64,000 nt of DNA from Candidatus Woesebacteria bacterium (lineage in GTDB: Bacteria; Patescibacteriota; Microgenomatia; UBA8517). Positions 2,278 through 48,647 of the stretch are shown one piece after another; position 1 is the stretch's first letter; each line of letters begins with the position of its first letter. A model generated the notes under the pieces. That model searched no databases. It was not told where the DNA came from and worked only from the letters and a program-made list of their open reading frames with translations. The translations under genes were made by a program, and so were the position numbers. The stretch lies in the NCBI GenBank assembly GCA_016700095.1, contig CP065002.1, positions 996,145-1,060,144 of the forward strand. Direction: 5' to 3'.

Positions 2278-3444
2278 TCAATAATTGACGTGTAGATAAT
2301 AAGTGTCAATTCCTTCACTTTGTGAAACTCTTACATAACGCAGTGTTCCTCCGCCACACGCGATAGCACCACGAAAGAGCTTACCATCTTTCACAGCCTT
2401 AACTGTCATATCATTGTTGGCGTTAATCATATCTATTCCGGTATGAGGCGCACCTCCGTAATATCTCAGGTTTACTGCATAATAAGTCATACCATAACCT
2501 TGCGTAATTCTAACGGGGTCATTTATCGGCCATTGCCAATTTCCCGAAAAACCGAACTGGCCATCGGGTGAGTTATCCCAAATCACAGATTTTGGAGTCA
2601 AAAAAGAAGTTGGATTTTGATGGGTGTTACTTTTGACAACTTCAAAATGTAGATGGGCACCACTGGAACATGCCGATGCACCGGGAATCACACTTGCTAT
2701 TCGGCTGCCTTCTTTTATATCGCCTACCTCGGTCTCTTTTCCTTTACCGGCTATAATGTCTTGGATTGCATCCCTTTCCGCTCGTGCTTGGACCAAAAGG
2801 CTTTGGTATTTTTTCTCGTCATTTCTTGTAATATCGAGTAATTTTGCTTTTGCTGTCTTTTGTGTGCCAAGCACCGACTTTTGATTTTCAAGCTCCACAT
2901 GTAAGTCTTCTTGATCAACCTTTTCCTCTTTGTAGTTTGATTGGGCATCTTCCAGTTTAATTAAAAGGTTGCGATCGGCTTCTTGGATTTTTTCAAGATA
3001 ATAAAAATTTGAAACCGCGCCCGACAAACTATTTGAAGATAAAAGGACGATATAAGGATCACTTATCCTACTAAGTTTATAGGACTGATTTACCCGGGAT
3101 GTAAATGCGCTGCTTAAAGAATCAAGCGAGGCTTCTAATTGATCAATTCTACCACCAAGAAGTGAAATCTTTTCCTCGGTTTGAGAAATCTTTAGTGTCG
3201 TTAAATTAATCTGTGCATTATACTGGGCAATTTGATTTGAGAGCGTATTGGCTTCGGCATTTAATCGTAATACTTCCGTCTGGTAATCCTCAATTTGTTT
3301 ATTGAGCTGGTTTAACTTATCTTGAACTTCCTGGGCAAATACATTATTACCGGTAAAAATAATTATTAGAAAGAAGAATAAAACCGCAATGATACTTTTT
3401 GTTATCGGCAGTTTTCGTTTGGAGATATCATGTATTGAAATCAT
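2278..3444 (-). CDS. Coiled-coil M23 family metallopeptidase; EnvC-like partner of FtsEX
   Basis: N-terminal TM, long coiled coil (QLN..QIA..), and a C-terminal M23 domain (HTGIDM, GAHLHFEV). Its stop overlaps the ftsX start. Confidence 0.7.
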   Translation of the reverse strand: MISIHDISKRKLPITKSIIAVLFFFLIIIFTGNNVFAQEVQDKLNQLNKQIEDYQTEVLRLNAEANTLSNQIAQYNAQINLTTLKISQTEEKISLLGGRIDQLEASLDSLSSAFTSRVNQSYKLSRISDPYIVLLSSNSLSGAVSNFYYLEKIQEADRNLLIKLEDAQSNYKEEKVDQEDLHVELENQKSVLGTQKTAKAKLLDITRNDEKKYQSLLVQARAERDAIQDIIAGKGKETEVGDIKEGSRIASVIPGASACSSGAHLHFEVVKSNTHQNPTSFLTPKSVIWDNSPDGQFGFSGNWQWPINDPVRITQGYGMTYYAVNLRYYGGAPHTGIDMINANNDMTVKAVKDGKLFRGAIACGGGTLRYVRVSQSEGIDTYYLHVNY

Positions 3445-39935: not shown

Positions 39936-42368
39936 ATGGAATTTGTCAGATGGCATTACAGTAAGGGAATTAGTCATTACCTAAAAAGCTGGGAAAATAT
40001 ATTTGAGTCCACGCTCAAATACTTTTCCTTTCCTATTCTTTTTAGAACACTCTTCTCACCATGGAAGAGACTCGGCAAAACGCAAAAAAGTTCTGGGTTC
40101 AATTGGGACAAATTCAAAGATGATTTAAGCTTCAATTTTGCTTCCCGAGTCGTAGGTTTTCTTACTCGCACATCACTTATTGTGACTGCTGTAATTGTAC
40201 TGATGTTTTTAATGACTTTCGGGGTATTTGGTCTACTTATGTGGATAATGTTTCCGATAGCAAGTTATTCTAAATATAAAAGTGTACAAAAAAGACCTGA
40301 GTATTTCGTAGCGGACATCGTCGACAAAGCCTTCAAATCCGATAATCCGACAAAAAATATTTTCGACAATCAAGCCGGAAAATTTGTTTTAGATCATTTG
40401 GGATTGGATATCGAAACCGTACTGACAAGCTCGTCATCACACATTGCTCTTGATTATTCAAATAAGTACGTAGGATATGCACAACTACTTGCTCATTTAA
40501 TCCAGGGTGGGTTATTTTCTCAAAATTTCTGGCGCGACAATGATATACACTCCGATGACATGTTGCTTGCCGCAGAGATTTGGGATACACGTAGACTAAT
40601 TGAATCCGGTGACAATTCCAATTCAACTACCTACATAAAAGGCATCGGTGCTAATTTATTGTTTGGTTATACTCCCGTCATTGACCAGATAGGAAGCGAT
40701 TTAATATATGAAAGAAGTAAAGCTCCCATGCTTCGAGGTAGAGATGATGTTATGGCGCGAATAGATCGCATCCTTTCCTCAAAATCTAGCATGTTACTTG
40801 TGGGAATGCCGGGAGTTGGGAAAAAAACTTTATTACTTGAACTTGCAAAAAAACTCGACAAGCAGTATCAACGTTTGGTCGAGGTAAGCATTGTGAAACT
40901 TACTCAAGGAATTGCCGACAACAATGATAAAAAAGTAGCAATCCAAAATATGTTATCCGAGGGAGCCAGTGCGGGAAATGTTGTAATCGTACTAAAAAAC
41001 TTGGAACGCATAACGAATTTGGAATTTGAAGGAGTCGATTATACCGATGTTTTCGAAGAGTATTTATCCAAAAAAAATATTGTGTTAATTGCCATATCTA
41101 CACCTGAGGAATACGAGAAATATTTATCAAGGAATTATCGACTTATGAATTATTTTGAGAAAGTTGACCTGGAACCCTTAAGCCCGGAATTTGCAACCCA
41201 GGTACTTATTGATCGGGCTGCGGAATTAGAAAGCACTCAAGGTGTTACGATTCCGATTCCCGTATTGAGGAAAATGGTAATAACAGCCGATAATTTTTCC
41301 AGCTATTCTCCGTTCCCACAAAAAGCTCTGGAATTATTAGAAGCAAGTGTTTTGTACACTAAACAAAACAATTCAAAAATTGTCACGAGCGAAGATGTTA
41401 TCACGGTTACATCTGAAAAAACCGGCATACCAACCATCGCATTAACCTCTCAACATAAACATAAATTGGCAAACATGGAAAGCCATTTGAAAGAAAAATT
41501 AATAGGTCAGGACAGTGCAATTAGAATGATTTCCCAAAGTCTTAGATCACGCGCCATGGATGTCTCAACCGGCAACAAACCAATCGGAACCTTTTTGTTT
41601 CTTGGTCCAACAGGTGTGGGAAAAACAGAAACCGCAAAAGTTTTATCGAATGTCTACTACGGTCACGATGACATTATGCGTTTTGATATGGGGGAATATA
41701 TCGGCATGGAAGGACTTATTAAATTAATCGGTTCATTGCAGATGAATCAACCCGGAATATTAACGACTGCAATTAGAAACAAACCCGCGGGAATGATTTT
41801 ATTTGATGAATTGGAAAAAGCCTCAAAAGAAGTATTCAATGTTCTTCTTCCGCTCATAGATGAAGGGTACATCGTAGATGCTTTTGGAAGAAAAGTAGAT
41901 TGTCGCAATACCTTTGTCATTTCAACATCAAATGCCGGATCGGATTTGATAAACCAACTTATTGCACAAGGTACAACCGGTGATGAATTAAACGAACAGG
42001 TATTAGATTATATAATCAGAGAAAGAATTTTTTCACCCGAATTCATTAACCGCTTCGATGGCGTCGTTGTCTACCAACCTTTGACGTACGAAGAATTAAC
42101 CAAAGTAGCAAGTATAAAGTTAAATATTTTAAAAAGTCGCATGGCTGAGAAAAACATTTTTGTCGAGCTTCACGAAAGTCTACCGCAAAAAGTGGCTATC
42201 GACGGATACCATCCAACTTACGGAGCAAGGCCGATGAACAGAGTGGTAAATATGACAATCGCTGATTTGATTTCCCAGGCGATGCTGTCTGAACAAGTTA
42301 AGCCAGGTGATAGAGTAATTTTACTTCCGGGAAACGAGAAACTAGAATACAGACTGCAAAAGATTTAA
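39936..42368 (+). CDS. Membrane-anchored double-AAA+ ClpA/ClpB-family ATPase (copy 2, divergent paralog of 16841..19324)
   Basis: Same N-terminal LFSPWKRL motif and 2 TM helices. AAA-1 Walker A is GMPGVGKKT, AAA-2 Walker A is GPTGVGKTE. ClpB D2-small-like tail. Confidence 0.7.
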   Translation: MEFVRWHYSKGISHYLKSWENIFESTLKYFSFPILFRTLFSPWKRLGKTQKSSGFNWDKFKDDLSFNFASRVVGFLTRTSLIVTAVIVLMFLMTFGVFGLLMWIMFPIASYSKYKSVQKRPEYFVADIVDKAFKSDNPTKNIFDNQAGKFVLDHLGLDIETVLTSSSSHIALDYSNKYVGYAQLLAHLIQGGLFSQNFWRDNDIHSDDMLLAAEIWDTRRLIESGDNSNSTTYIKGIGANLLFGYTPVIDQIGSDLIYERSKAPMLRGRDDVMARIDRILSSKSSMLLVGMPGVGKKTLLLELAKKLDKQYQRLVEVSIVKLTQGIADNNDKKVAIQNMLSEGASAGNVVIVLKNLERITNLEFEGVDYTDVFEEYLSKKNIVLIAISTPEEYEKYLSRNYRLMNYFEKVDLEPLSPEFATQVLIDRAAELESTQGVTIPIPVLRKMVITADNFSSYSPFPQKALELLEASVLYTKQNNSKIVTSEDVITVTSEKTGIPTIALTSQHKHKLANMESHLKEKLIGQDSAIRMISQSLRSRAMDVSTGNKPIGTFLFLGPTGVGKTETAKVLSNVYYGHDDIMRFDMGEYIGMEGLIKLIGSLQMNQPGILTTAIRNKPAGMILFDELEKASKEVFNVLLPLIDEGYIVDAFGRKVDCRNTFVISTSNAGSDLINQLIAQGTTGDELNEQVLDYIIRERIFSPEFINRFDGVVVYQPLTYEELTKVASIKLNILKSRMAEKNIFVELHESLPQKVAIDGYHPTYGARPMNRVVNMTIADLISQAMLSEQVKPGDRVILLPGNEKLEYRLQKI

Positions 42369-42580
42369 CGGTTACCTATTTTATGAGGACAATTAGTACA
42401 TTTTCTTGCTTCAATCTCCAGATTTAACATTCGTGTGAAAACAAGTTGTCTACCCAGCGGTCCCAAGAGGTTGGTCAAAATATTTTCTTCAGGTTTGGCT
42501 AATGCATTTTTATGATCAAGCATTTGCTGCCAAGCACAGCCACCTCCTATGAAAGACTTACATTTATACTCTTTTCCCAT
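42365..42580 (-). CDS. Small Cys-containing protein (possible zinc ribbon)
   Basis: 71 aa. Cys at 6, 15, 61 and 64 (C..C...CTNC). Confidence 0.2.
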   Translation of the reverse strand: MGKEYKCKSFIGGGCAWQQMLDHKNALAKPEENILTNLLGPLGRQLVFTRMLNLEIEARKCTNCPHKIGNR

Positions 42581-42637
42581 AATAAATAATCCGCAATAAT
42601 ATTGGAGAATTAATTATAGGGTATTATATCATTTATT

Positions 42638-42832
42638 CTAATTCTTATTCAAACCTTCAGGCTTTGTTACTACTATCTTGCTTGTAATATCCGTATCATA
42701 TCGAATAATTGTAGACTCGCCTACTCCGGGGCCTGTTACGACAATATTTCCACTACTTCCTTTTCTTTGTTTACTTTCTGCCAACTTTAACGCGGCGTTC
42801 AGTCTATCTTTATATGGGCGATCAGGAGTCAT
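42638..42832 (-). CDS. Small hypothetical protein
   Basis: 64 aa ORF immediately 3' of serS on the same strand. No motif. Confidence 0.2.
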   Translation of the reverse strand: MTPDRPYKDRLNAALKLAESKQRKGSSGNIVVTGPGVGESTIIRYDTDITSKIVVTKPEGLNKN

Positions 42833-42833
42833 G

Positions 42834-44066
42834 TCATTTAATCCTCTCCTTCCCCATCCATTTCTGAAGCGCTTTGGGGATTAGAACGCTTCCGTCCTTT
42901 TGCTGATTGTTTTCAATTATTGCAATTGGCGTACGCGAGGTTGCAATTGCTGTGCCATTTAACATATGTACATATTCATTTTTGCCTCCCTTTGCCTGAT
43001 ATTTAATATTTAAATTTCTTGCCTGATAATCGGTACAGTTTGATGTGGAGGTTACTTCGCCATAATCGTTTCTTCCCGGCATCCAGGCTTCTATATCATA
43101 TTTCCTGGCAGCCATAGCCCCCAGATCTCCAGTGCATTGTTTCAAAACTCGATATGGCAAACCCAATTCTTGGTAGATTGCTTCTTCCATAGCCAATAAG
43201 TAATCGTGCATCTTATTTGACTCTTTAGGTTCACAGTAAATAAACATCTCAGCTTTTGTAAATTGATGTACCCGATACATTCCTCTCGAATACTTGCCAT
43301 ACGCTCCTGCCTCTTGCCTGAAACAATGCGAATAACCGATATATTTGATCGGTAATTTGTTTGCGGGAATAATTTCGTCTGCATGTTTACCTGCCAATGT
43401 AACCTCAGCAGTTGCAATAAGACCCAAGTCTTCTCCTTCAATCATATAAGTTTGAGCTTCATCGCCACGCGGAGCGTATCCAGTTCCTAAATAAAATCTT
43501 GATTTAGCCAAATCCGGAGTAATAACAGGAGTAAACCCTTCTTTTCTTAATTTCTCGAAAACGTATTGTACGAGCGCCAATTCGAGCATTGCACCATCAC
43601 CATAAAGATAATAAAACTGAGATCCTGCAACTTTTGCGCCATCCTCGAGACTGAGTATCCCGAGTTTTTCACCCAACTCTAAATGATCTTTAGGTTCAAA
43701 ATCAAATTTTGGAATTTCTCCCCATTTTTTAATTACTTCATTTTCCTCCTCACCCTTACCCACCTTTACATCACTGGAAGCGGGATTGGGTATCAGATTA
43801 AGTGCATCATTAAACTCCCTTTCGGCCCTTTCAAGATCCGGTTCGATTAGTTTTAATTTTTCTTTAATTTCTTTGCCTTTTTTAATATTTTTCTCTTTGG
43901 CAATTTTATTCCTATCGGCACGAAGAACTTCAATTTCCTTAAGTATATTTCTACGCTTTTCATCCAGGGCTAAAACTTTGTCAACCAAGGACGCATCCAT
44001 CTGCTTATCAGCAGTACCTTTTTTAACTAAGTCTTTATTTTCTCTAATAAATTTAATATCTAGCAT
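42834..44066 (-). CDS. serS: Seryl-tRNA synthetase
   Basis: N-terminal coiled-coil arm and class II motifs (FRQEAG, GYSHCFRQE, GLPYRVL). 410 aa. Confidence 0.85.
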   Translation of the reverse strand: MLDIKFIRENKDLVKKGTADKQMDASLVDKVLALDEKRRNILKEIEVLRADRNKIAKEKNIKKGKEIKEKLKLIEPDLERAEREFNDALNLIPNPASSDVKVGKGEEENEVIKKWGEIPKFDFEPKDHLELGEKLGILSLEDGAKVAGSQFYYLYGDGAMLELALVQYVFEKLRKEGFTPVITPDLAKSRFYLGTGYAPRGDEAQTYMIEGEDLGLIATAEVTLAGKHADEIIPANKLPIKYIGYSHCFRQEAGAYGKYSRGMYRVHQFTKAEMFIYCEPKESNKMHDYLLAMEEAIYQELGLPYRVLKQCTGDLGAMAARKYDIEAWMPGRNDYGEVTSTSNCTDYQARNLNIKYQAKGGKNEYVHMLNGTAIATSRTPIAIIENNQQKDGSVLIPKALQKWMGKERIK

Positions 44067-44090
44067 ATTTTATTTTCGCTTATTATAACA

Positions 44091-44732
44091 TCACAAAGCA
44101 TGTGAACTTAAATCGGAACGCAGTTTGGTCAAATGCTCAGTGTCGTTTAACTTGACGAGTTTTAGTTCTTTACTGCCATTTACTCCAACGATATCAAATT
44201 CGGTCACAGCAGCAGGATCAAGTTTAAATTTCCATAAATCGTCAATTGGCCTTTTTTCGGCCATACATACCATGACACGCACAATGTTATCGTGAGTAAT
44301 TAGCAAAGAATTTCCCTGCCACGTTTTACCCATAATATAATTTCTCACTCTACCTGCTGTTTCAACAAACTTCTCACCAAAGGGAAAAACAGCTTTTGAT
44401 GGCATATTTTGCCATAAATCAAATACCTCGGGATAATTGTTTTTGATCCATTTAATGTTTTTTCCCTCCCATTCGCCGTGATTGGTTTCGATTATTGCGT
44501 GTTCATAGACAACTTCAACGCCGATTTTTTGGGAAACGATTCGTGCGGTTTCCATGGTTCGTTTTAATGGACTGGATATTATTTGGTCTATATCCCGTGT
44601 CAAACTTTCCGCAAGTGCTTTTGCTTGTTTTTTGCCAAGCGGAGAAAGCCCAGTGTTATAAGTCTGGCCTTGATAAATCCCTTTTGTGTTTGCAATACTT
44701 TCAGCGTGTCTTGCCACTAATATTTTTGCCAT
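44091..44732 (-). CDS. Histidine phosphatase family protein (phosphoglycerate-mutase-like)
   Basis: RHAES motif at the N-terminus (LVARHAESIAN) and a downstream His (ITHDNIVR). Confidence 0.65.
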   Translation of the reverse strand: MAKILVARHAESIANTKGIYQGQTYNTGLSPLGKKQAKALAESLTRDIDQIISSPLKRTMETARIVSQKIGVEVVYEHAIIETNHGEWEGKNIKWIKNNYPEVFDLWQNMPSKAVFPFGEKFVETAGRVRNYIMGKTWQGNSLLITHDNIVRVMVCMAEKRPIDDLWKFKLDPAAVTEFDIVGVNGSKELKLVKLNDTEHLTKLRSDLSSHAL

Positions 44733-44803
44733 ATTTTTAATGATTAATTCCTGTATACCTTTACGTAAGAGTGTTTTGTTATTTCACACTTTTTGGTTCA
44801 GAA

Positions 44804-44836
44804 ATAAAAAAACACCTTCCAATCAGGTAAGGTGTT
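44804..44836 (-). terminator. Intrinsic terminator of the candidate sRNA
   Basis: Minus-strand 5'-AACACCTT-ACCTGATTGG-AAGGTGTT-TTTTTAT: an 8-bp stem followed by a U-tract. Confidence 0.6.
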
Positions 44837-44996
44837 GTGCCCCCGTATGATGGGGAGGTGCCAGCTCAACTTTGCTTGAAAAGTTAATTTCAAGTCTACT
44901 TTATTAACGCTGTTACGGGCTAACCCGTGTCGGTTATTACCCCGACAAGCTCCGTTGGTGGAATCCGACAGTATCGGGCCAACATCAATGCTATTA
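44806..44996 (-). ncRNA. Candidate stand-alone small RNA (~190 nt), family unknown
   Basis: Bounded by a consensus sigma70-type promoter (TTGACA-17-TAAAAT) and a canonical intrinsic terminator. It contains several local hairpins (GTCGG-GGTAATAA-CCGAC; ACGGG-TTAG-CCCGT; CCCC-ATCATAC-GGGG), is GC-richer than its flanks, and has no ORF. Confidence 0.4.
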
Positions 44997-45003
44997 TGTG
45001 AGT

Positions 45004-45032
45004 ATTTTATGTAAGATTGACTGTTGTGTCAA
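45004..45032 (-). promoter_or_regulatory. Consensus sigma70-like promoter driving the candidate sRNA
   Basis: Minus strand: TTGACA (plus-strand 45027..45032), a 17-nt spacer, then TAAAAT (45004..45009). Confidence 0.5.
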
Positions 45033-45138
45033 ACAGTGAAATTTTACATAATAACTTTTCTTTGTTATAAATATATAATGACAATTTTGTTGCCTTTAAA
45101 TACTTGTCTAATCTTTCGTATATGATTTCATTCACTCT

Positions 45139-45348
45139 ATGAGGGAACGAAAAGAAGAACCAATGCAAACTGAGTTTTACGCCGTGTGTCCTGGAAAAAA
45201 TGGGTTGAATTCCCATATAGTTCCGATAACAAACGGTGCTCAGCAAGGTGACAAAGTGTCATGTCTCACACATGGAACAACATTAACTGTTGAAGCAAAT
45301 GAAGATTGGGGTAGATTGTCAGTAGAAGTTACAGTAATACCTGTTTAA
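45139..45348 (+). CDS. Small hypothetical protein
   Basis: 69 aa (or 61 aa from the internal Met), beta-rich composition. Sits alone in a 750-bp low-density region. Confidence 0.25.
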   Translation: MRERKEEPMQTEFYAVCPGKNGLNSHIVPITNGAQQGDKVSCLTHGTTLTVEANEDWGRLSVEVTVIPV

Positions 45349-45487
45349 CCATAAATAACCATAAACTTTTTTTCTTTACCTATGGTTTTTGTCCCCATAC
45401 CTTATATAACAAACTAAACTCGCGGTTTACAAATATCCACAGACTTCTATGTAGAATCTTGATCATATGAGAATAAAAACTAACCCA

Positions 45488-46054
45488 TCACAGGCCCAAA
45501 TCTTCATGGATATTTTGCATTGAAGTTAATGCGATCTCGATAAATTCCTCCAGTGCAATACCGAGTCTTTCCTCACACATTTTTATCTGCTGTCTATCAA
45601 CTCCGGCTGCAAATGCTTTTTGTTTCCATTTACTTTGAATTGACCCAACAGTGACGGCTGATAGTTTCTTCTCGGGTTTAACCAGAGCAACCGCAACGAT
45701 TAACCCGGTAAGTTCATCACATGTATACAAACTCCATGCCATACGTGTACTTGGTTGAGGAGCACCGTCTACATAATTCCATGCATGCTCAGCGACTGCC
45801 GATTTAACATCCGAGTGAGCTTCCAGTTCATCAAGCCATTTCAGAGCTCTTATTGTATGTTCTTTTTTTGCAGTTTCTTTTGTTTCTTCATAATCAACAT
45901 CGTGAATCAGTCCCGCCAAACCCCATATATCCTCATCTTCACCAAATCTTTTAGCAAGAGAACGCATGACGGCTTCCACAGCATAGCAATGTCTACGCAA
46001 GTTAATGTTTGTAATATGCTTATGAAGTAAATTTATTGCTTGATCTCTCGTCAT
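45488..46054 (-). CDS. HD-domain phosphohydrolase
   Basis: H...HD motif (RRHCYAVEAVMR...AGLIHDVDYE). Start overlaps the lysS stop. Confidence 0.65.
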   Translation of the reverse strand: MTRDQAINLLHKHITNINLRRHCYAVEAVMRSLAKRFGEDEDIWGLAGLIHDVDYEETKETAKKEHTIRALKWLDELEAHSDVKSAVAEHAWNYVDGAPQPSTRMAWSLYTCDELTGLIVAVALVKPEKKLSAVTVGSIQSKWKQKAFAAGVDRQQIKMCEERLGIALEEFIEIALTSMQNIHEDLGL

Positions 46055-47559
46055 TTCTCTTGTTTTTTTACTTTCTTAATGCTTTCGGGTTTGAGCAAAG
46101 GAAAAAGAACTGCTTCACGGACAGGTAAATCGGCTAGAAATGAAAACAATCTCTCACTAACACCAAAACCGGTAACAGGAGGCATACCAAATTCGAGTGC
46201 TTGCACGAAATCATAATCATGCATCTGCGCTTCTTTGTCGCCTTCATCGCGCATGCCTTGCTGCGCCTTAAATCTTTCTTGTTGGTCAACCGGATCGTTT
46301 AACTCACTATAGCCATTCCCCATCTCACTTCCAGCTAATATTATCTGATACCTTTGGGTAAATTCAGGTCGATCTTCCAATCGCTTTGATAAGGGCGACA
46401 CTAAAACCGGATGCCCAACGAGAAAAACAGGACCGCCAATTTCTTTTCTTACCTGTTTCCACAATAAATCAATTAATCTCCCCTGTGTATCACTTTTTTC
46501 AAATCTAATCTTTAATTCGTTAAGCTTGTTTTTGAGATCATCTATGCTTGCCACCGATACATCAATCCCCATCTTTGCCTTGATTGAATCTACATAATCG
46601 ATTTTTTCCCATTTGGTATCCAAATTAATCGAAAATCCATTTATTTTAAATTTAAGACTACCAAAAACTTTTTGCGCAACGTACTTATACATTTCTTCGA
46701 CAAGTTGCATCGAATCAACATAACTGGCATAAGCCCAGTAAAATTCCATTTGCGTATAATCCTGAAGATGCTCACGGCTTAATCCTTCGTTTCTAAATTG
46801 TCTACCTATCTCGAATGTTTTTTCAAAGCCGGCGACCATCAATCTTTTTTGCCACAGTTCTCCCATAGAAATCCTTAAATAAAGATTGATATCAAAAGCG
46901 GCATGGTGGGTTACAAACGGATTAGCATCGGCACCGCCTGCGGTATTTTCCAAAACCGGAGTCTCGACCTCAAGAAAACCTTTATCGATCATGAAGTTTC
47001 TGATACTCTGCCAAAACATGGCTTTTTTTCTAAACAGATCCTTCAGGTCGTCGTTAACCAATAAATCGATATATCTTTGCCTATATCGCAATTCTTCATC
47101 TTTGATGCCGTGCCATTTTTCGGGAAGAGGCCGTACTGATTTGGTCAATATTTTTATTTCGCTAGGTATTAGCGATATTTCACCGCGGACTGTTTTCCCG
47201 ACCACACCATTAACCTCCAAAAAGTCTCCGACATCAGTCAACTTTATAAAATCGGTAAAACCTAAGTTTTGTTTTTCACGAGATGTTTCATGTAATGTCT
47301 TTTTTTGTACAAATACTTGCAATTTTCCCGTTTCATCCTGAATATGACCAAAGGCAATATTTCCATGCTCACGCAATCCAACCAATCGCCCCGCAAGCGA
47401 AATTTCTTTGCCTTCAAACTTCGAGTAGTTATTTAATATATAAGAATTCGAAAAATCTTTCTTAGCGCTTGCCGGATAAGGATCAATGCCCATCTCACGC
47501 AATTTAGCTACTTTTGCAAGTTTTATTGATCTAATTTCTTCTAATCTACTATTTTTCAT
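46051..47559 (-). CDS. lysS: Lysyl-tRNA synthetase, class II
   Basis: OB-fold anticodon-binding N-terminus and class II motifs (FRNEG, GGADANPF, GFGVSERLFSFL). 502 aa. Confidence 0.85.
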   Translation of the reverse strand: MKNSRLEEIRSIKLAKVAKLREMGIDPYPASAKKDFSNSYILNNYSKFEGKEISLAGRLVGLREHGNIAFGHIQDETGKLQVFVQKKTLHETSREKQNLGFTDFIKLTDVGDFLEVNGVVGKTVRGEISLIPSEIKILTKSVRPLPEKWHGIKDEELRYRQRYIDLLVNDDLKDLFRKKAMFWQSIRNFMIDKGFLEVETPVLENTAGGADANPFVTHHAAFDINLYLRISMGELWQKRLMVAGFEKTFEIGRQFRNEGLSREHLQDYTQMEFYWAYASYVDSMQLVEEMYKYVAQKVFGSLKFKINGFSINLDTKWEKIDYVDSIKAKMGIDVSVASIDDLKNKLNELKIRFEKSDTQGRLIDLLWKQVRKEIGGPVFLVGHPVLVSPLSKRLEDRPEFTQRYQIILAGSEMGNGYSELNDPVDQQERFKAQQGMRDEGDKEAQMHDYDFVQALEFGMPPVTGFGVSERLFSFLADLPVREAVLFPLLKPESIKKVKKQEK

Positions 47560-47591
47560 TTATTATTTAGGATGCTTCTAGTTTAACAAAC

Positions 47592-48647
47592 TTATGTGTT
47601 TATGGAAACATAAGCATTATACAATTCACCCAGTTGAATTAGTTTACTTATCTCTACTGATTCGCTTGTTGTATGCGCATCTTTGCTTCCATCGCCAATA
47701 TTAATTACTTTTATACCATTTTTAATAAAGGCGTTAGCATCACTACCACCAAACGAATTTTTGTATTTCGGTTTTATTCCCAGTTTAGCAAATGCTTTTT
47801 TTACATCTCCCAAACACCTATCGTTTTTGGCTAAACGATACCCTTCACTATATGGTTTTTCCTCATATATTAATTTGACACCACTGCTTACTTGTGCTTC
47901 GAAAACATTGCGGGTTTTTACCAATGTCTCGTTAAATGTCGCGAATGAAAAGCTTCGTATTTCACCTTCAATACTAATACTTCCGGGTATAGTATTTGTT
48001 GCGGTTCCTCCTTTTATTAGTCCGATATTACACGTAGTTAATTTGTCGACTCTTCCAATGGTCATTAACGACAAAGCATCAATAGTCGGAATAAGCACAT
48101 TTCTTCCTTTCTCTGGAATAGATGAATGTGCCAGTTTTCCGACAAACTCCATTTTTAAATCAGTAATCCAAGGTGAGGCAGTAATTATAGTACCCAATTC
48201 GGAAGAGCTGTCGGCAACAATTCCGCTTGTAGCGTGTAATTGACGAAAATCAAACTTACTTATTCCACTATCCGTTTCTTCCCTGACACTAAAAACCAAC
48301 TCAAGTGGTCGATGGTTGAGCTGCAAATTATCAAGGGTCTCTAAAATCGCTGCGATACACACTTTGTTATCCGCACCCAATATCGTTTTTCCACCACTTG
48401 TAATAATGCCGTTATTAACTACCGGTTTAATACCGCGTCCGGGTTCCACCGTATCCATATGACATGAAAGCACCACCGGTTTACGACCTTCACCGATTTT
48501 TGCAAACACATTACCCTCCTCATCAACCCTGAAATTCACATCGAGTTTGGTTAATCTGTTGGTAATATATTTTCGTATTTCCTCTTCGTGACCCGACGGG
48601 CTATCAATCCGTACCAAGTCGCAAAAAGTATCAATAATTTTATTCAT
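47592..48647 (-). CDS. M20/M42 family metallopeptidase (peptidase T / aminopeptidase-like)
   Basis: HMDTV metal-binding motif, GADNK, and downstream E/H ligands. 351 aa. Confidence 0.6.
   Translation of the reverse strand: MNKIIDTFCDLVRIDSPSGHEEEIRKYITNRLTKLDVNFRVDEEGNVFAKIGEGRKPVVLSCHMDTVEPGRGIKPVVNNGIITSGGKTILGADNKVCIAAILETLDNLQLNHRPLELVFSVREETDSGISKFDFRQLHATSGIVADSSSELGTIITASPWITDLKMEFVGKLAHSSIPEKGRNVLIPTIDALSLMTIGRVDKLTTCNIGLIKGGTATNTIPGSISIEGEIRSFSFATFNETLVKTRNVFEAQVSSGVKLIYEEKPYSEGYRLAKNDRCLGDVKKAFAKLGIKPKYKNSFGGSDANAFIKNGIKVINIGDGSKDAHTTSESVEISKLIQLGELYNAYVSINT

Follow-up and report, generated by a model that had tools for sequence, protein, structure and literature searches.

The classical transcriptional T-boxes are those of Firmicutes (Rfam RF00230), among them the leaders of B. 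subtilis tyrS and glyQS and the serine T-boxes of serS and serA. The order of their elements has been reviewed (PMC7583486), and transcriptional T-boxes are said to generally require a long Stem I platform, in which interdigitated T-loops stack on the tRNA elbow, while a short Stem I goes along with translational control (PMC7583486). The latter arrangement is represented by ileS T-boxes of Actinobacteria whose Stem I is ultrashort or of intermediate length, 'class II' in TBDB; these are translational and include the M. tuberculosis and N. farcinica leaders (PDB 6UFG and 6UFM; PMC7583486). The TBDB search for this short-Stem-I class covered Actinobacteria only (PMC7778990). Here we analyse a minus-strand element at positions 44804-45032 of a 64-kb window, i.e. 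the whole stretch of 64,000 nucleotides examined, from a Candidatus Woesebacteria bacterium of the Microgenomates (contig CP065002.1), located upstream of an operon that encodes a histidine-family phosphatase and the seryl-tRNA synthetase SerS.

Candidate Phyla Radiation bacteria, to which the host belongs, have tiny genomes and few known regulators. Based on comparisons to related loci combined with folding and covariation analyses, we propose with high confidence that the element is a T-box leader. Its specificity is most likely for serine, with control of the phosphatase-serS operon by transcription attenuation, and the exact switching geometry, as modelled from folding energies, is assigned with lower confidence than the identity of the leader. 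A preliminary description of the locus had taken the element for a stand-alone small RNA (sRNA) of unrecognised family. Its view of a discrete, structured non-coding unit with its own promoter and terminator holds, while the stand-alone status is most likely wrong, as the unit lies 72 nt upstream of the phosphatase-serS operon in a position conserved in Microgenomates. In annotation terms the feature would become a cis-regulatory leader instead of an orphan sRNA. A limited literature search for T-boxes in the Candidate Phyla Radiation, Patescibacteria or Microgenomates returned no work, which is no proof of novelty.

Architecture of the leader

The features of the transcription unit are given below in the order of transcription. 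The core was delimited using a covariance model, R1, that was built from seven leaders of other genomes with the window excluded, and that comprises 130 model positions.

45004..45032, minus strand: sigma-70-type promoter (-35 TTGACA at 45032-45027, 17-nt spacer, -10 TAAAAT at 45009-45004)
44832..44995, minus strand: core of the T-box leader, K-turn through 3' strand of antiterminator helix A1 (R1 match)
44948..44992, minus strand: Stem I with a K-turn at its base (read from the sequence and covariation)
44992-44985 and 44952-44948, minus strand: K-turn with C-stem AGC/GCU, 3-nt bulge AUU and tandem G.A/A.G
44984-44979 with 44958-44953, minus strand: Stem I proximal helix, 6 bp
44977-44965, minus strand: Stem I distal mini-hairpin, 4 bp
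44964-44959, minus strand: 3' side of the specifier loop, A-U-UCC-A, with UCC (Ser codon) at 44962-44960 followed by A44959
44929..44946, minus strand: shortened Stem II, GUCGG-GGUAAUAA-CCGAC, 5 bp with the 8-nt loop GGUAAUAA
44909..44928, minus strand: Stem IIA hairpin with F-box-like motif, ACGGG-UUAG-CCCGU plus CCGUAACAGC
44905-44896, minus strand: purine-rich linker AAUAAAGUAG
44894-44875, minus strand: Stem III hairpin CUUGAAA-UUAAC-UUUUCAAG, then CAAA
44834..44870, minus strand: antiterminator, composed of helix A1, T-box bulge and helix A2
44870-44864 with 44840-44834, minus strand: helix A1, GUUGAGC/GCACAAC, with one A.A mismatch
44863-44857, minus strand: T-box bulge UGGCACC, 7 nt
44841-44855, minus strand: helix A2, CCCC-AUCAUAC-GGGG
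44806..44836, minus strand: intrinsic terminator, hairpin 44836-44811 (AACACCUU-ACCUGAUUGG-AAGGUGUU) and T7 run 44812-44806
44091..44732, minus strand: histidine-phosphatase family gene, 213 aa, first regulated gene (Pfam PF00300 in all homologues)
42834..44066, minus strand: serS (seryl-tRNA synthetase), 410 aa, second regulated gene (TIGR00414, 465 bits, cut-off 302)

The promoter agrees with the consensus at 11 of 12 positions, which makes it the top promoter-like site of the 6 kb scanned (42000-48000). We place the transcription start near A44997 from the promoter position, so that the terminated RNA would be about 190 nt long; the -10 box and the end of the T-run lie about 198 nt apart. 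The terminator hairpin has a predicted energy of -11.5 kcal/mol, with the first two T of the T7 run also closing the stem, and it escaped a simple terminator scan solely because its loop exceeds 8 nt, being recovered by folding. The GC content of 44800-44999 is 0.45, compared to 0.30-0.41 in the adjacent 200-nt windows, and the only open reading frame (ORF) in the element is a 31-codon TTG ORF, for which reason a small-peptide gene was rejected. With a minimum free energy of -60.8 kcal/mol (z = -3.05), the element is more stable than any of 200 shuffled sequences. The promoter, the terminator some 190 nt downstream, the GC enrichment, the lack of a substantial ORF and the wealth of hairpins had all been noticed in the preliminary description, and each was confirmed by these figures.

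Probable identity and serine specificity

The order of elements along the leader is shared with the classical T-boxes, as is the specifier codon followed by a purine, here UCC-A44959. UCC occupies the Stem I loop position in 39/39 leaders and is the sole triplet common to all, followed by A in 27 and by C in 12. The codon fits serS, which in 40 of 42 Microgenomates loci comes after the phosphatase gene, and the regulated genes follow the classical pattern of an aminoacyl-tRNA synthetase together with a gene plausibly acting in the pathway of the cognate amino acid. At the 3' end, the purine-rich linker and Stem III precede the A1/UGGCACC/A2 arrangement of a discriminator domain at 44870-44834, with a purine box, AAAUUAAGUA or AAAUUGAGUA, conserved across the leaders and the bulge reading UGGCACC in 34/39 of them. 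G73 is expected for bacterial tRNA-Ser and would pair with the C of UGGC. UCC is a known Ser specifier, and Ser T-box regulons are known to include serS as well as genes of serine biosynthesis (PMC8002221). UGGU occurs in a characterised Ser T-box (PMC8002221), the rule relating UGGN to the discriminator base thus not being strict.

Support also comes from the Rfam T-box model RF00230, which aligns along its whole length to the orthologous leaders L014 (57.1 bits, E 8.8e-10) and L017 (53.3 bits, E 8.6e-9), with the interior of Stem I deleted (about 74-80 model positions skipped), and matches L030 and L035 more weakly. R1 finds L014 as well but not L017, both leaders being located upstream of the same operon. 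Rfam is silent on the copy in the window at any threshold tried, and in this respect the earlier label of an unrecognised family was accurate; with T-box parts present and orthologous copies giving significant sub-threshold T-box matches, it does not hold for the family as such.

Another leader of this design occurs at L012:5634-5753 (+), in Candidatus Woesebacteria GW2011_GWB1_39_10, as a second, smaller T-box-like leader directly upstream of thrS. It carries ACC (Thr) in the alignment columns of the UCC of the Ser leaders, has the bulge UGGAACC, is followed by a hairpin and U-run, and is devoid of both Stem II and Stem IIA. Agreement of the loop codon with the synthetase encoded downstream is the signature of the T-box mechanism, and the minimal design thus serves more than one synthetase in the lineage.

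The same codon exchange bears on the notion of a cis-regulatory leader of another kind, such as a small-molecule riboswitch or a protein-binding attenuator, that merely resembles a T-box. The atypically small Stem I and Stem II and the failure of the Rfam T-box model on the window copy would fit such a leader. It is nevertheless scarcely credible given that many independent T-box elements follow one another as expected (K-turn, loop with the codon, F-box, purine box, a UGGNACC bulge between two helices and competition with a terminator), that the loop codon becomes ACC before thrS, and that orthologues reach E ~1e-9 against RF00230. A cobalamin riboswitch, considered since the phosphatase also resembles CobC, was rejected in view of the lack of an Rfam hit and the Ser codon and serS linkage found instead.

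Several observations weigh against the assignment of the element as a T-box leader. At gathering score, Rfam reports no family in the whole 64-kb window, and at E<=10 on 44600-45200 it returns no T-box, only two chance-level matches (mir-4766 and enod40). RF00230 at its gathering score of 93 bits has no match in 20 related loci either, the best orthologues remaining at the 57.1 and 53.3 bits given above. By eye, the canonical 14-nt T-box sequence is matched at 8/13 specified positions. Stem I, a 6-bp helix with a 4-bp mini-hairpin, is without a distal platform, Stem II is a bare 5-bp hairpin without obvious S-turn, the IIB pseudoknot is weak in the window, and at the base of A2 the orientation of the wobble pair differs from the canonical G.U. 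The ileS T-box of M. tuberculosis lost tRNA binding when its Stem II was shortened (PMC11297988). A tRNA-Ser partner is absent from the window, where ARAGORN detects neither tRNA genes nor tmRNA, and from the 42 loci, where only tRNA-Glu was found. Finally, terminator and antiterminator overlap by 3 nt only.

The silence of Rfam extends to other common RNAs: 6S, SRP, tmRNA, RNase P and 5S were rejected, as no family model matches at gathering score in the window or at E<=10 in 44600-45200, in line with what had been concluded by eye before.

Conservation and helix support

To place the leader in context, an alignment of phosphatase homologues was used to fetch 64 loci of representative genomes, of which 42 belong to Microgenomates. 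In about 20 of the fetched loci, a search with the window element (nhmmer) yields a match immediately ahead of the phosphatase gene, and on reading the upstream regions the same leader design is seen in 38 loci. In all, about 38 of 42 Microgenomates genomes have this leader ahead of the phosphatase-serS pair. The preliminary description had allowed for an element without conservation; this is not what was found. A sigma-70-like promoter with at least 10/12 consensus positions is present at the equivalent place just upstream of the leader in 23/39 homologous leaders.

R1 matches the window at 44832-44995 on the minus strand with 81.2 bits (E 3.8e-16 / 5.6e-17) and 130/130 model positions. As R1 was built without the window and finds exactly this site, the leader is not a chance combination of motifs. 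With filters off, the model detects no second copy in the 64-kb window, the next best match (15.8 bits) being located inside AT-rich sequence. On the fetched loci, R1 marks 36 sites; apart from the L012 thrS leader, every one of them precedes the orthologous phosphatase gene, and the Chloroflexi loci give no match.

These data also bear on the earlier idea of a stand-alone, trans-acting sRNA of unknown family, next to the operon by coincidence. The strong promoter and terminator of its own, the high predicted stability and the absence of a family recognised by Rfam are what such a gene would display, and a terminated RNA of about 190 nt would accumulate and mimic an sRNA in RNA-seq, as do the terminated riboswitch leaders that appear as 'sRNAs' in transcriptomes owing to the same succession of promoter, ~190 nt and terminator. 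Position and orientation upstream of the same operon are, however, fixed in about 38 genomes, while the flanking genes vary, an invariant Ser codon in a loop is combined with a UGGNACC bulge whose helix is in competition with the terminator, orthologues match RF00230 significantly, and the operon has no separate promoter-like site. We therefore regard an independent sRNA as very improbable. Unlike for a true sRNA, nothing indicates a function in trans, and the short RNA would be a by-product of the OFF state.

Covariation was assessed on 37 sequences fitted to the R1 structure, and the resulting numbers therefore lean towards that structure. In this alignment 94.5% of cells are paired (67.8% when shuffled), 22/25 pairs show changes on both sides, lending the support from homologous loci that the first reading of the element had called for, and the covariation score of 0.629 compares to 0.174 for shuffled alignments (0/500 shuffles reach 0.629) and to at most 0.098 when partners are slid by 1-3 columns, a wide margin. 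Stem II and Stem IIA also emerge without structure fitting, when RNAalifold is given 22 leaders aligned simply by MAFFT. The same approach applied to Stem I segments predicts no pairs, because the loops differ in length and the arms consequently fall out of register, and Stem I was assessed on the model-fitted alignment only. MAFFT seed alignments that included insertion-bearing leaders (window, L005, L007, L026) or L012 split or shifted helices and were dropped.

In Stem I, which in most relatives is a plain hairpin of 5-7 bp, double changes occur in 5/5 modelled pairs, with 95.7% of cells paired. The K-turn at its base is complete in the window, where the C-stem is formed by A44992-U44948, G44991-C44949 and C44990-G44950 and the tandem by G44986.A44951 and A44985.G44952. 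One C-stem pair covaries from GC to AU in 4 sequences, and several relatives carry a non-consensus AA for GA, the motif thus not being uniform.

Stem II shows compensatory changes in 6/6 pairs in the unfitted RNAalifold prediction, and in the fitted alignment it is 93.3% paired, again with double changes in 6/6. Of the 4 pairs of Stem IIA, 2 show double changes while CG/GC is invariant, as is CGU.A in the alignment; the F-box-like CCGUAA is present in the window leader. Both helices are thus strongly supported, and the 8-nt Stem II loop of the window contains no recognisable S-turn. The IIB pseudoknot, tested explicitly, is 54% paired overall, with support for 1-2 pairs, the first of which is well supported (GC 24, UA 4). 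Stem III is an optional insertion that is present in the window, L003 and L007. The A1 and A2 pairs are 89-100% paired, with double changes in 8/8 modelled pairs.

A2 is absent from L020, L028, L033 and L034 (just upstream of position 3001; about 1120 in L033), where A1 is closed by a 12-nt loop, UGGCACCUGAAA or UGGCACCUGAGA. Since the wobble pair to which steric sensing of the aminoacyl group has been ascribed belongs to A2, these copies may sense charging differently or not at all.

Proposed switching mechanism

The antiterminator alone folds with -8.4 kcal/mol and the terminator with -11.5 kcal/mol. Because the terminator is the more stable, the default state is termination (OFF), an energetic bias shared with the classical T-boxes. 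The two structures are mutually exclusive: the A1 3' strand (44840-44834) and the terminator 5' arm have AAC 44836-44834 in common, and once A1 takes the three shared bottom pairs, the terminator weakens from -11.5 to -6.3 kcal/mol. The overlap is small compared to classical examples; the same layout is found in L008.

We infer tRNA binding, sensing of charging and read-through by analogy. Transcription would start at the 45032 promoter, and uncharged tRNA-Ser would then bind UCC with its anticodon, as in the solved T-box-tRNA complexes (PMC7583486). Its 3' GCCA would pair with UGGC (44863-44860) and stack on A1, stabilising the antiterminator 44870-44834. In conjunction, A1 would retain AAC 44836-44834, needed for the three bottom pairs of the terminator beside the U-run, so that the terminator, weakened and displaced from the U-run, would let RNA polymerase read into the phosphatase gene and serS. 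With charged Ser-tRNA, or no tRNA, the more stable terminator would form and an RNA of about 190 nt would be released. The RNA of this size predicted in the preliminary description would thus be the OFF-state product of the leader.

The geometry may be more complex than a simple two-state exchange. The terminator 3' arm UGGAAGGUGUU (44811-44821) pairs about equally with the local arm AACACCUUACC (44826-44836) and with the T-box bulge region GGCACCUCC (44853-44862), at -11.5 and -11.6 kcal/mol, and a three-state switch is conceivable. The local arm AACACCUUACC resembles a duplicated decoy of the T-box sequence. As a caveat on the mechanism, the T-box bulge region is the sole 5' arm of the hairpin in many relatives, where it also covers a GGAGG ribosome-binding site.

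In L002, L007, L010, L011, L014, L022-L024, L026, L031, L036, L041 and L042, the last ~50 nt before the start codon hold a terminator 3' arm GGAGGU(G), then U5-7, then the start codon. The hairpin 5' arm in these loci is the T-box bulge CACCUCC, a mimic of the anti-Shine-Dalgarno sequence, and from its sequence a single hairpin could there serve as both terminator and sequestrator of the ribosome-binding site.

Such loci call for consideration of a T-box that acts mainly on translation or mRNA stability, or with dual output, or else of a window copy that is a partly decayed relic with a constitutive terminator. A short Stem I without elbow platform is the architecture of the actinobacterial translational T-boxes (PMC7583486), a hairpin of this type hides the ribosome-binding site in many related loci, and both the 3-nt overlap and the near-equal pairing options of the terminator 3' arm could be read as signs of translational output or decay. 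In the window, by contrast, the hairpin is located 72 nt upstream of the ATG and holds no ribosome-binding site of the gene, making sequestration impossible there, hairpin and U7 form a textbook intrinsic terminator, and all T-box elements are intact, with the layout retained in L008. We consider these alternatives unlikely. Given the 72-nt distance from the ATG, termination is the only plausible output of the T-box leader in the window.

Relation to described T-box classes

Unlike the classical T-boxes, the leader has no AG bulge and distal loop in Stem I to form a platform for the tRNA elbow, and its Stem II is reduced. Its T-box sequence reads GAGC-UGGCACC-UCC compared to the classical AGGG-UGGNACC-GCG, A1 contains a conserved internal purine mismatch, and its overlap with the terminator amounts to no more than 3 nt. 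Together with its orthologues it scores far below the Rfam gathering threshold, and the host is a Candidate Phyla Radiation bacterium, not one of the Firmicutes.

With the actinobacterial ileS T-boxes it shares the truncated Stem I, which displays the codon within the apical loop or adjacent to it, the lack of an elbow-binding platform, and C at the third codon position. Those leaders are specific for Ile, the window leader for Ser in our assignment. They hide the Shine-Dalgarno sequence, whereas the window leader ends in a hairpin and U7, 72 nt before the start codon, with no Shine-Dalgarno sequence in the competing helix; GGAGG is nevertheless part of the 3' arm in many relatives, where it directly precedes the start codon. 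The long Stem II with S-turn of the actinobacterial leaders is replaced by a short hairpin in the window, and relatives such as L002, L010, L011 and L014 retain a long Stem II with GAAA...UAAG. Hence, the window leader shares most of the defining T-box parts examined, but it neither reaches the Rfam threshold nor has a long Stem I platform or actinobacterial-type sequestration of the ribosome-binding site. Because in this host from the Candidate Phyla Radiation a short Stem I and a short Stem II are coupled to an intrinsic terminator, it represents a variant and not a textbook T-box.

It is quite possible, without our holding it to be the likelier case, that Microgenomates carry a distinct, minimised T-box lineage, with a Stem I of 5-7 bp that bears the codon within its apical loop or next to it, no elbow platform, a Stem II that is often a small hairpin and an A2 that is sometimes absent, and that is nonetheless wired to an intrinsic terminator. 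Wired in this manner, the decision of such leaders must be co-transcriptional and kinetically limited. If the proposal is true, the lineage contradicts the generalisation that T-boxes acting on transcription need the platform of a long Stem I, and it would provide the smallest natural T-box of the transcriptional type. The combination of a short-Stem-I T-box with a terminator also constitutes a natural test of the need for the elbow platform in co-transcriptional tRNA sensing, and at ~165 nt offers a compact scaffold for engineering.

For annotation, Rfam at gathering thresholds misses T-box leaders upstream of the phosphatase-serS operon in Microgenomates. A tRNA-sensing switch on serS and the phosphatase gene would be among the few regulatory circuits that can be deduced for the Candidate Phyla Radiation. 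As the basic T-box mechanism is well known, the finding extends a known system and does not establish a new one.

Operon context

On the minus strand the order is lysS, an HD-domain gene, a 455-nt gap, the promoter, the ~190-nt element, the 72-nt spacer and then the operon, with the phosphatase gene starting at the ATG at 44732 and followed by serS. In the promoter scan (42000-48000), no second promoter-like site was found between the terminator and the phosphatase start codon. Promoter, structured leader, terminator and operon in this succession are the layout of a transcription-attenuating leader, not of an independent gene.

The top NCBIfam match of the phosphatase is PspA phosphoserine phosphatase (NF045917), with 133 bits, below the cut-off of 350. 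It is possibly a PspA-type phosphoserine phosphatase, the assignment being only a hint. The leader would hint at serine metabolism for this enzyme as well, and if the proposed minimised T-box lineage is real, its Ser specificity would suggest that these reduced genomes use the co-regulated histidine phosphatase as their phosphoserine phosphatase. This reading is tempered by the serine cluster of L012, which also holds a SerB-like gene. There, a gene for a SerB-like HAD phosphatase follows serS at L012:4943-5626 (+) and matches TIGR00338 with 120.9 bits, just below the cut-off of 144, the PspA-like histidine phosphatase and the SerB-like gene thus occurring in one cluster.

The 455-nt gap between the HD-domain gene and the promoter (window 45033-45487) is without a long minus-strand ORF, and a plus-strand 69-codon ORF within it (45139-45348) has no NCBIfam match. 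Among the related loci, the phosphatase-serS pair is present in L004, L006 and L019 with no T-box motif upstream of the phosphatase gene, and in L004 and L006 a different GC-rich stretch and a small ORF are located at this place.

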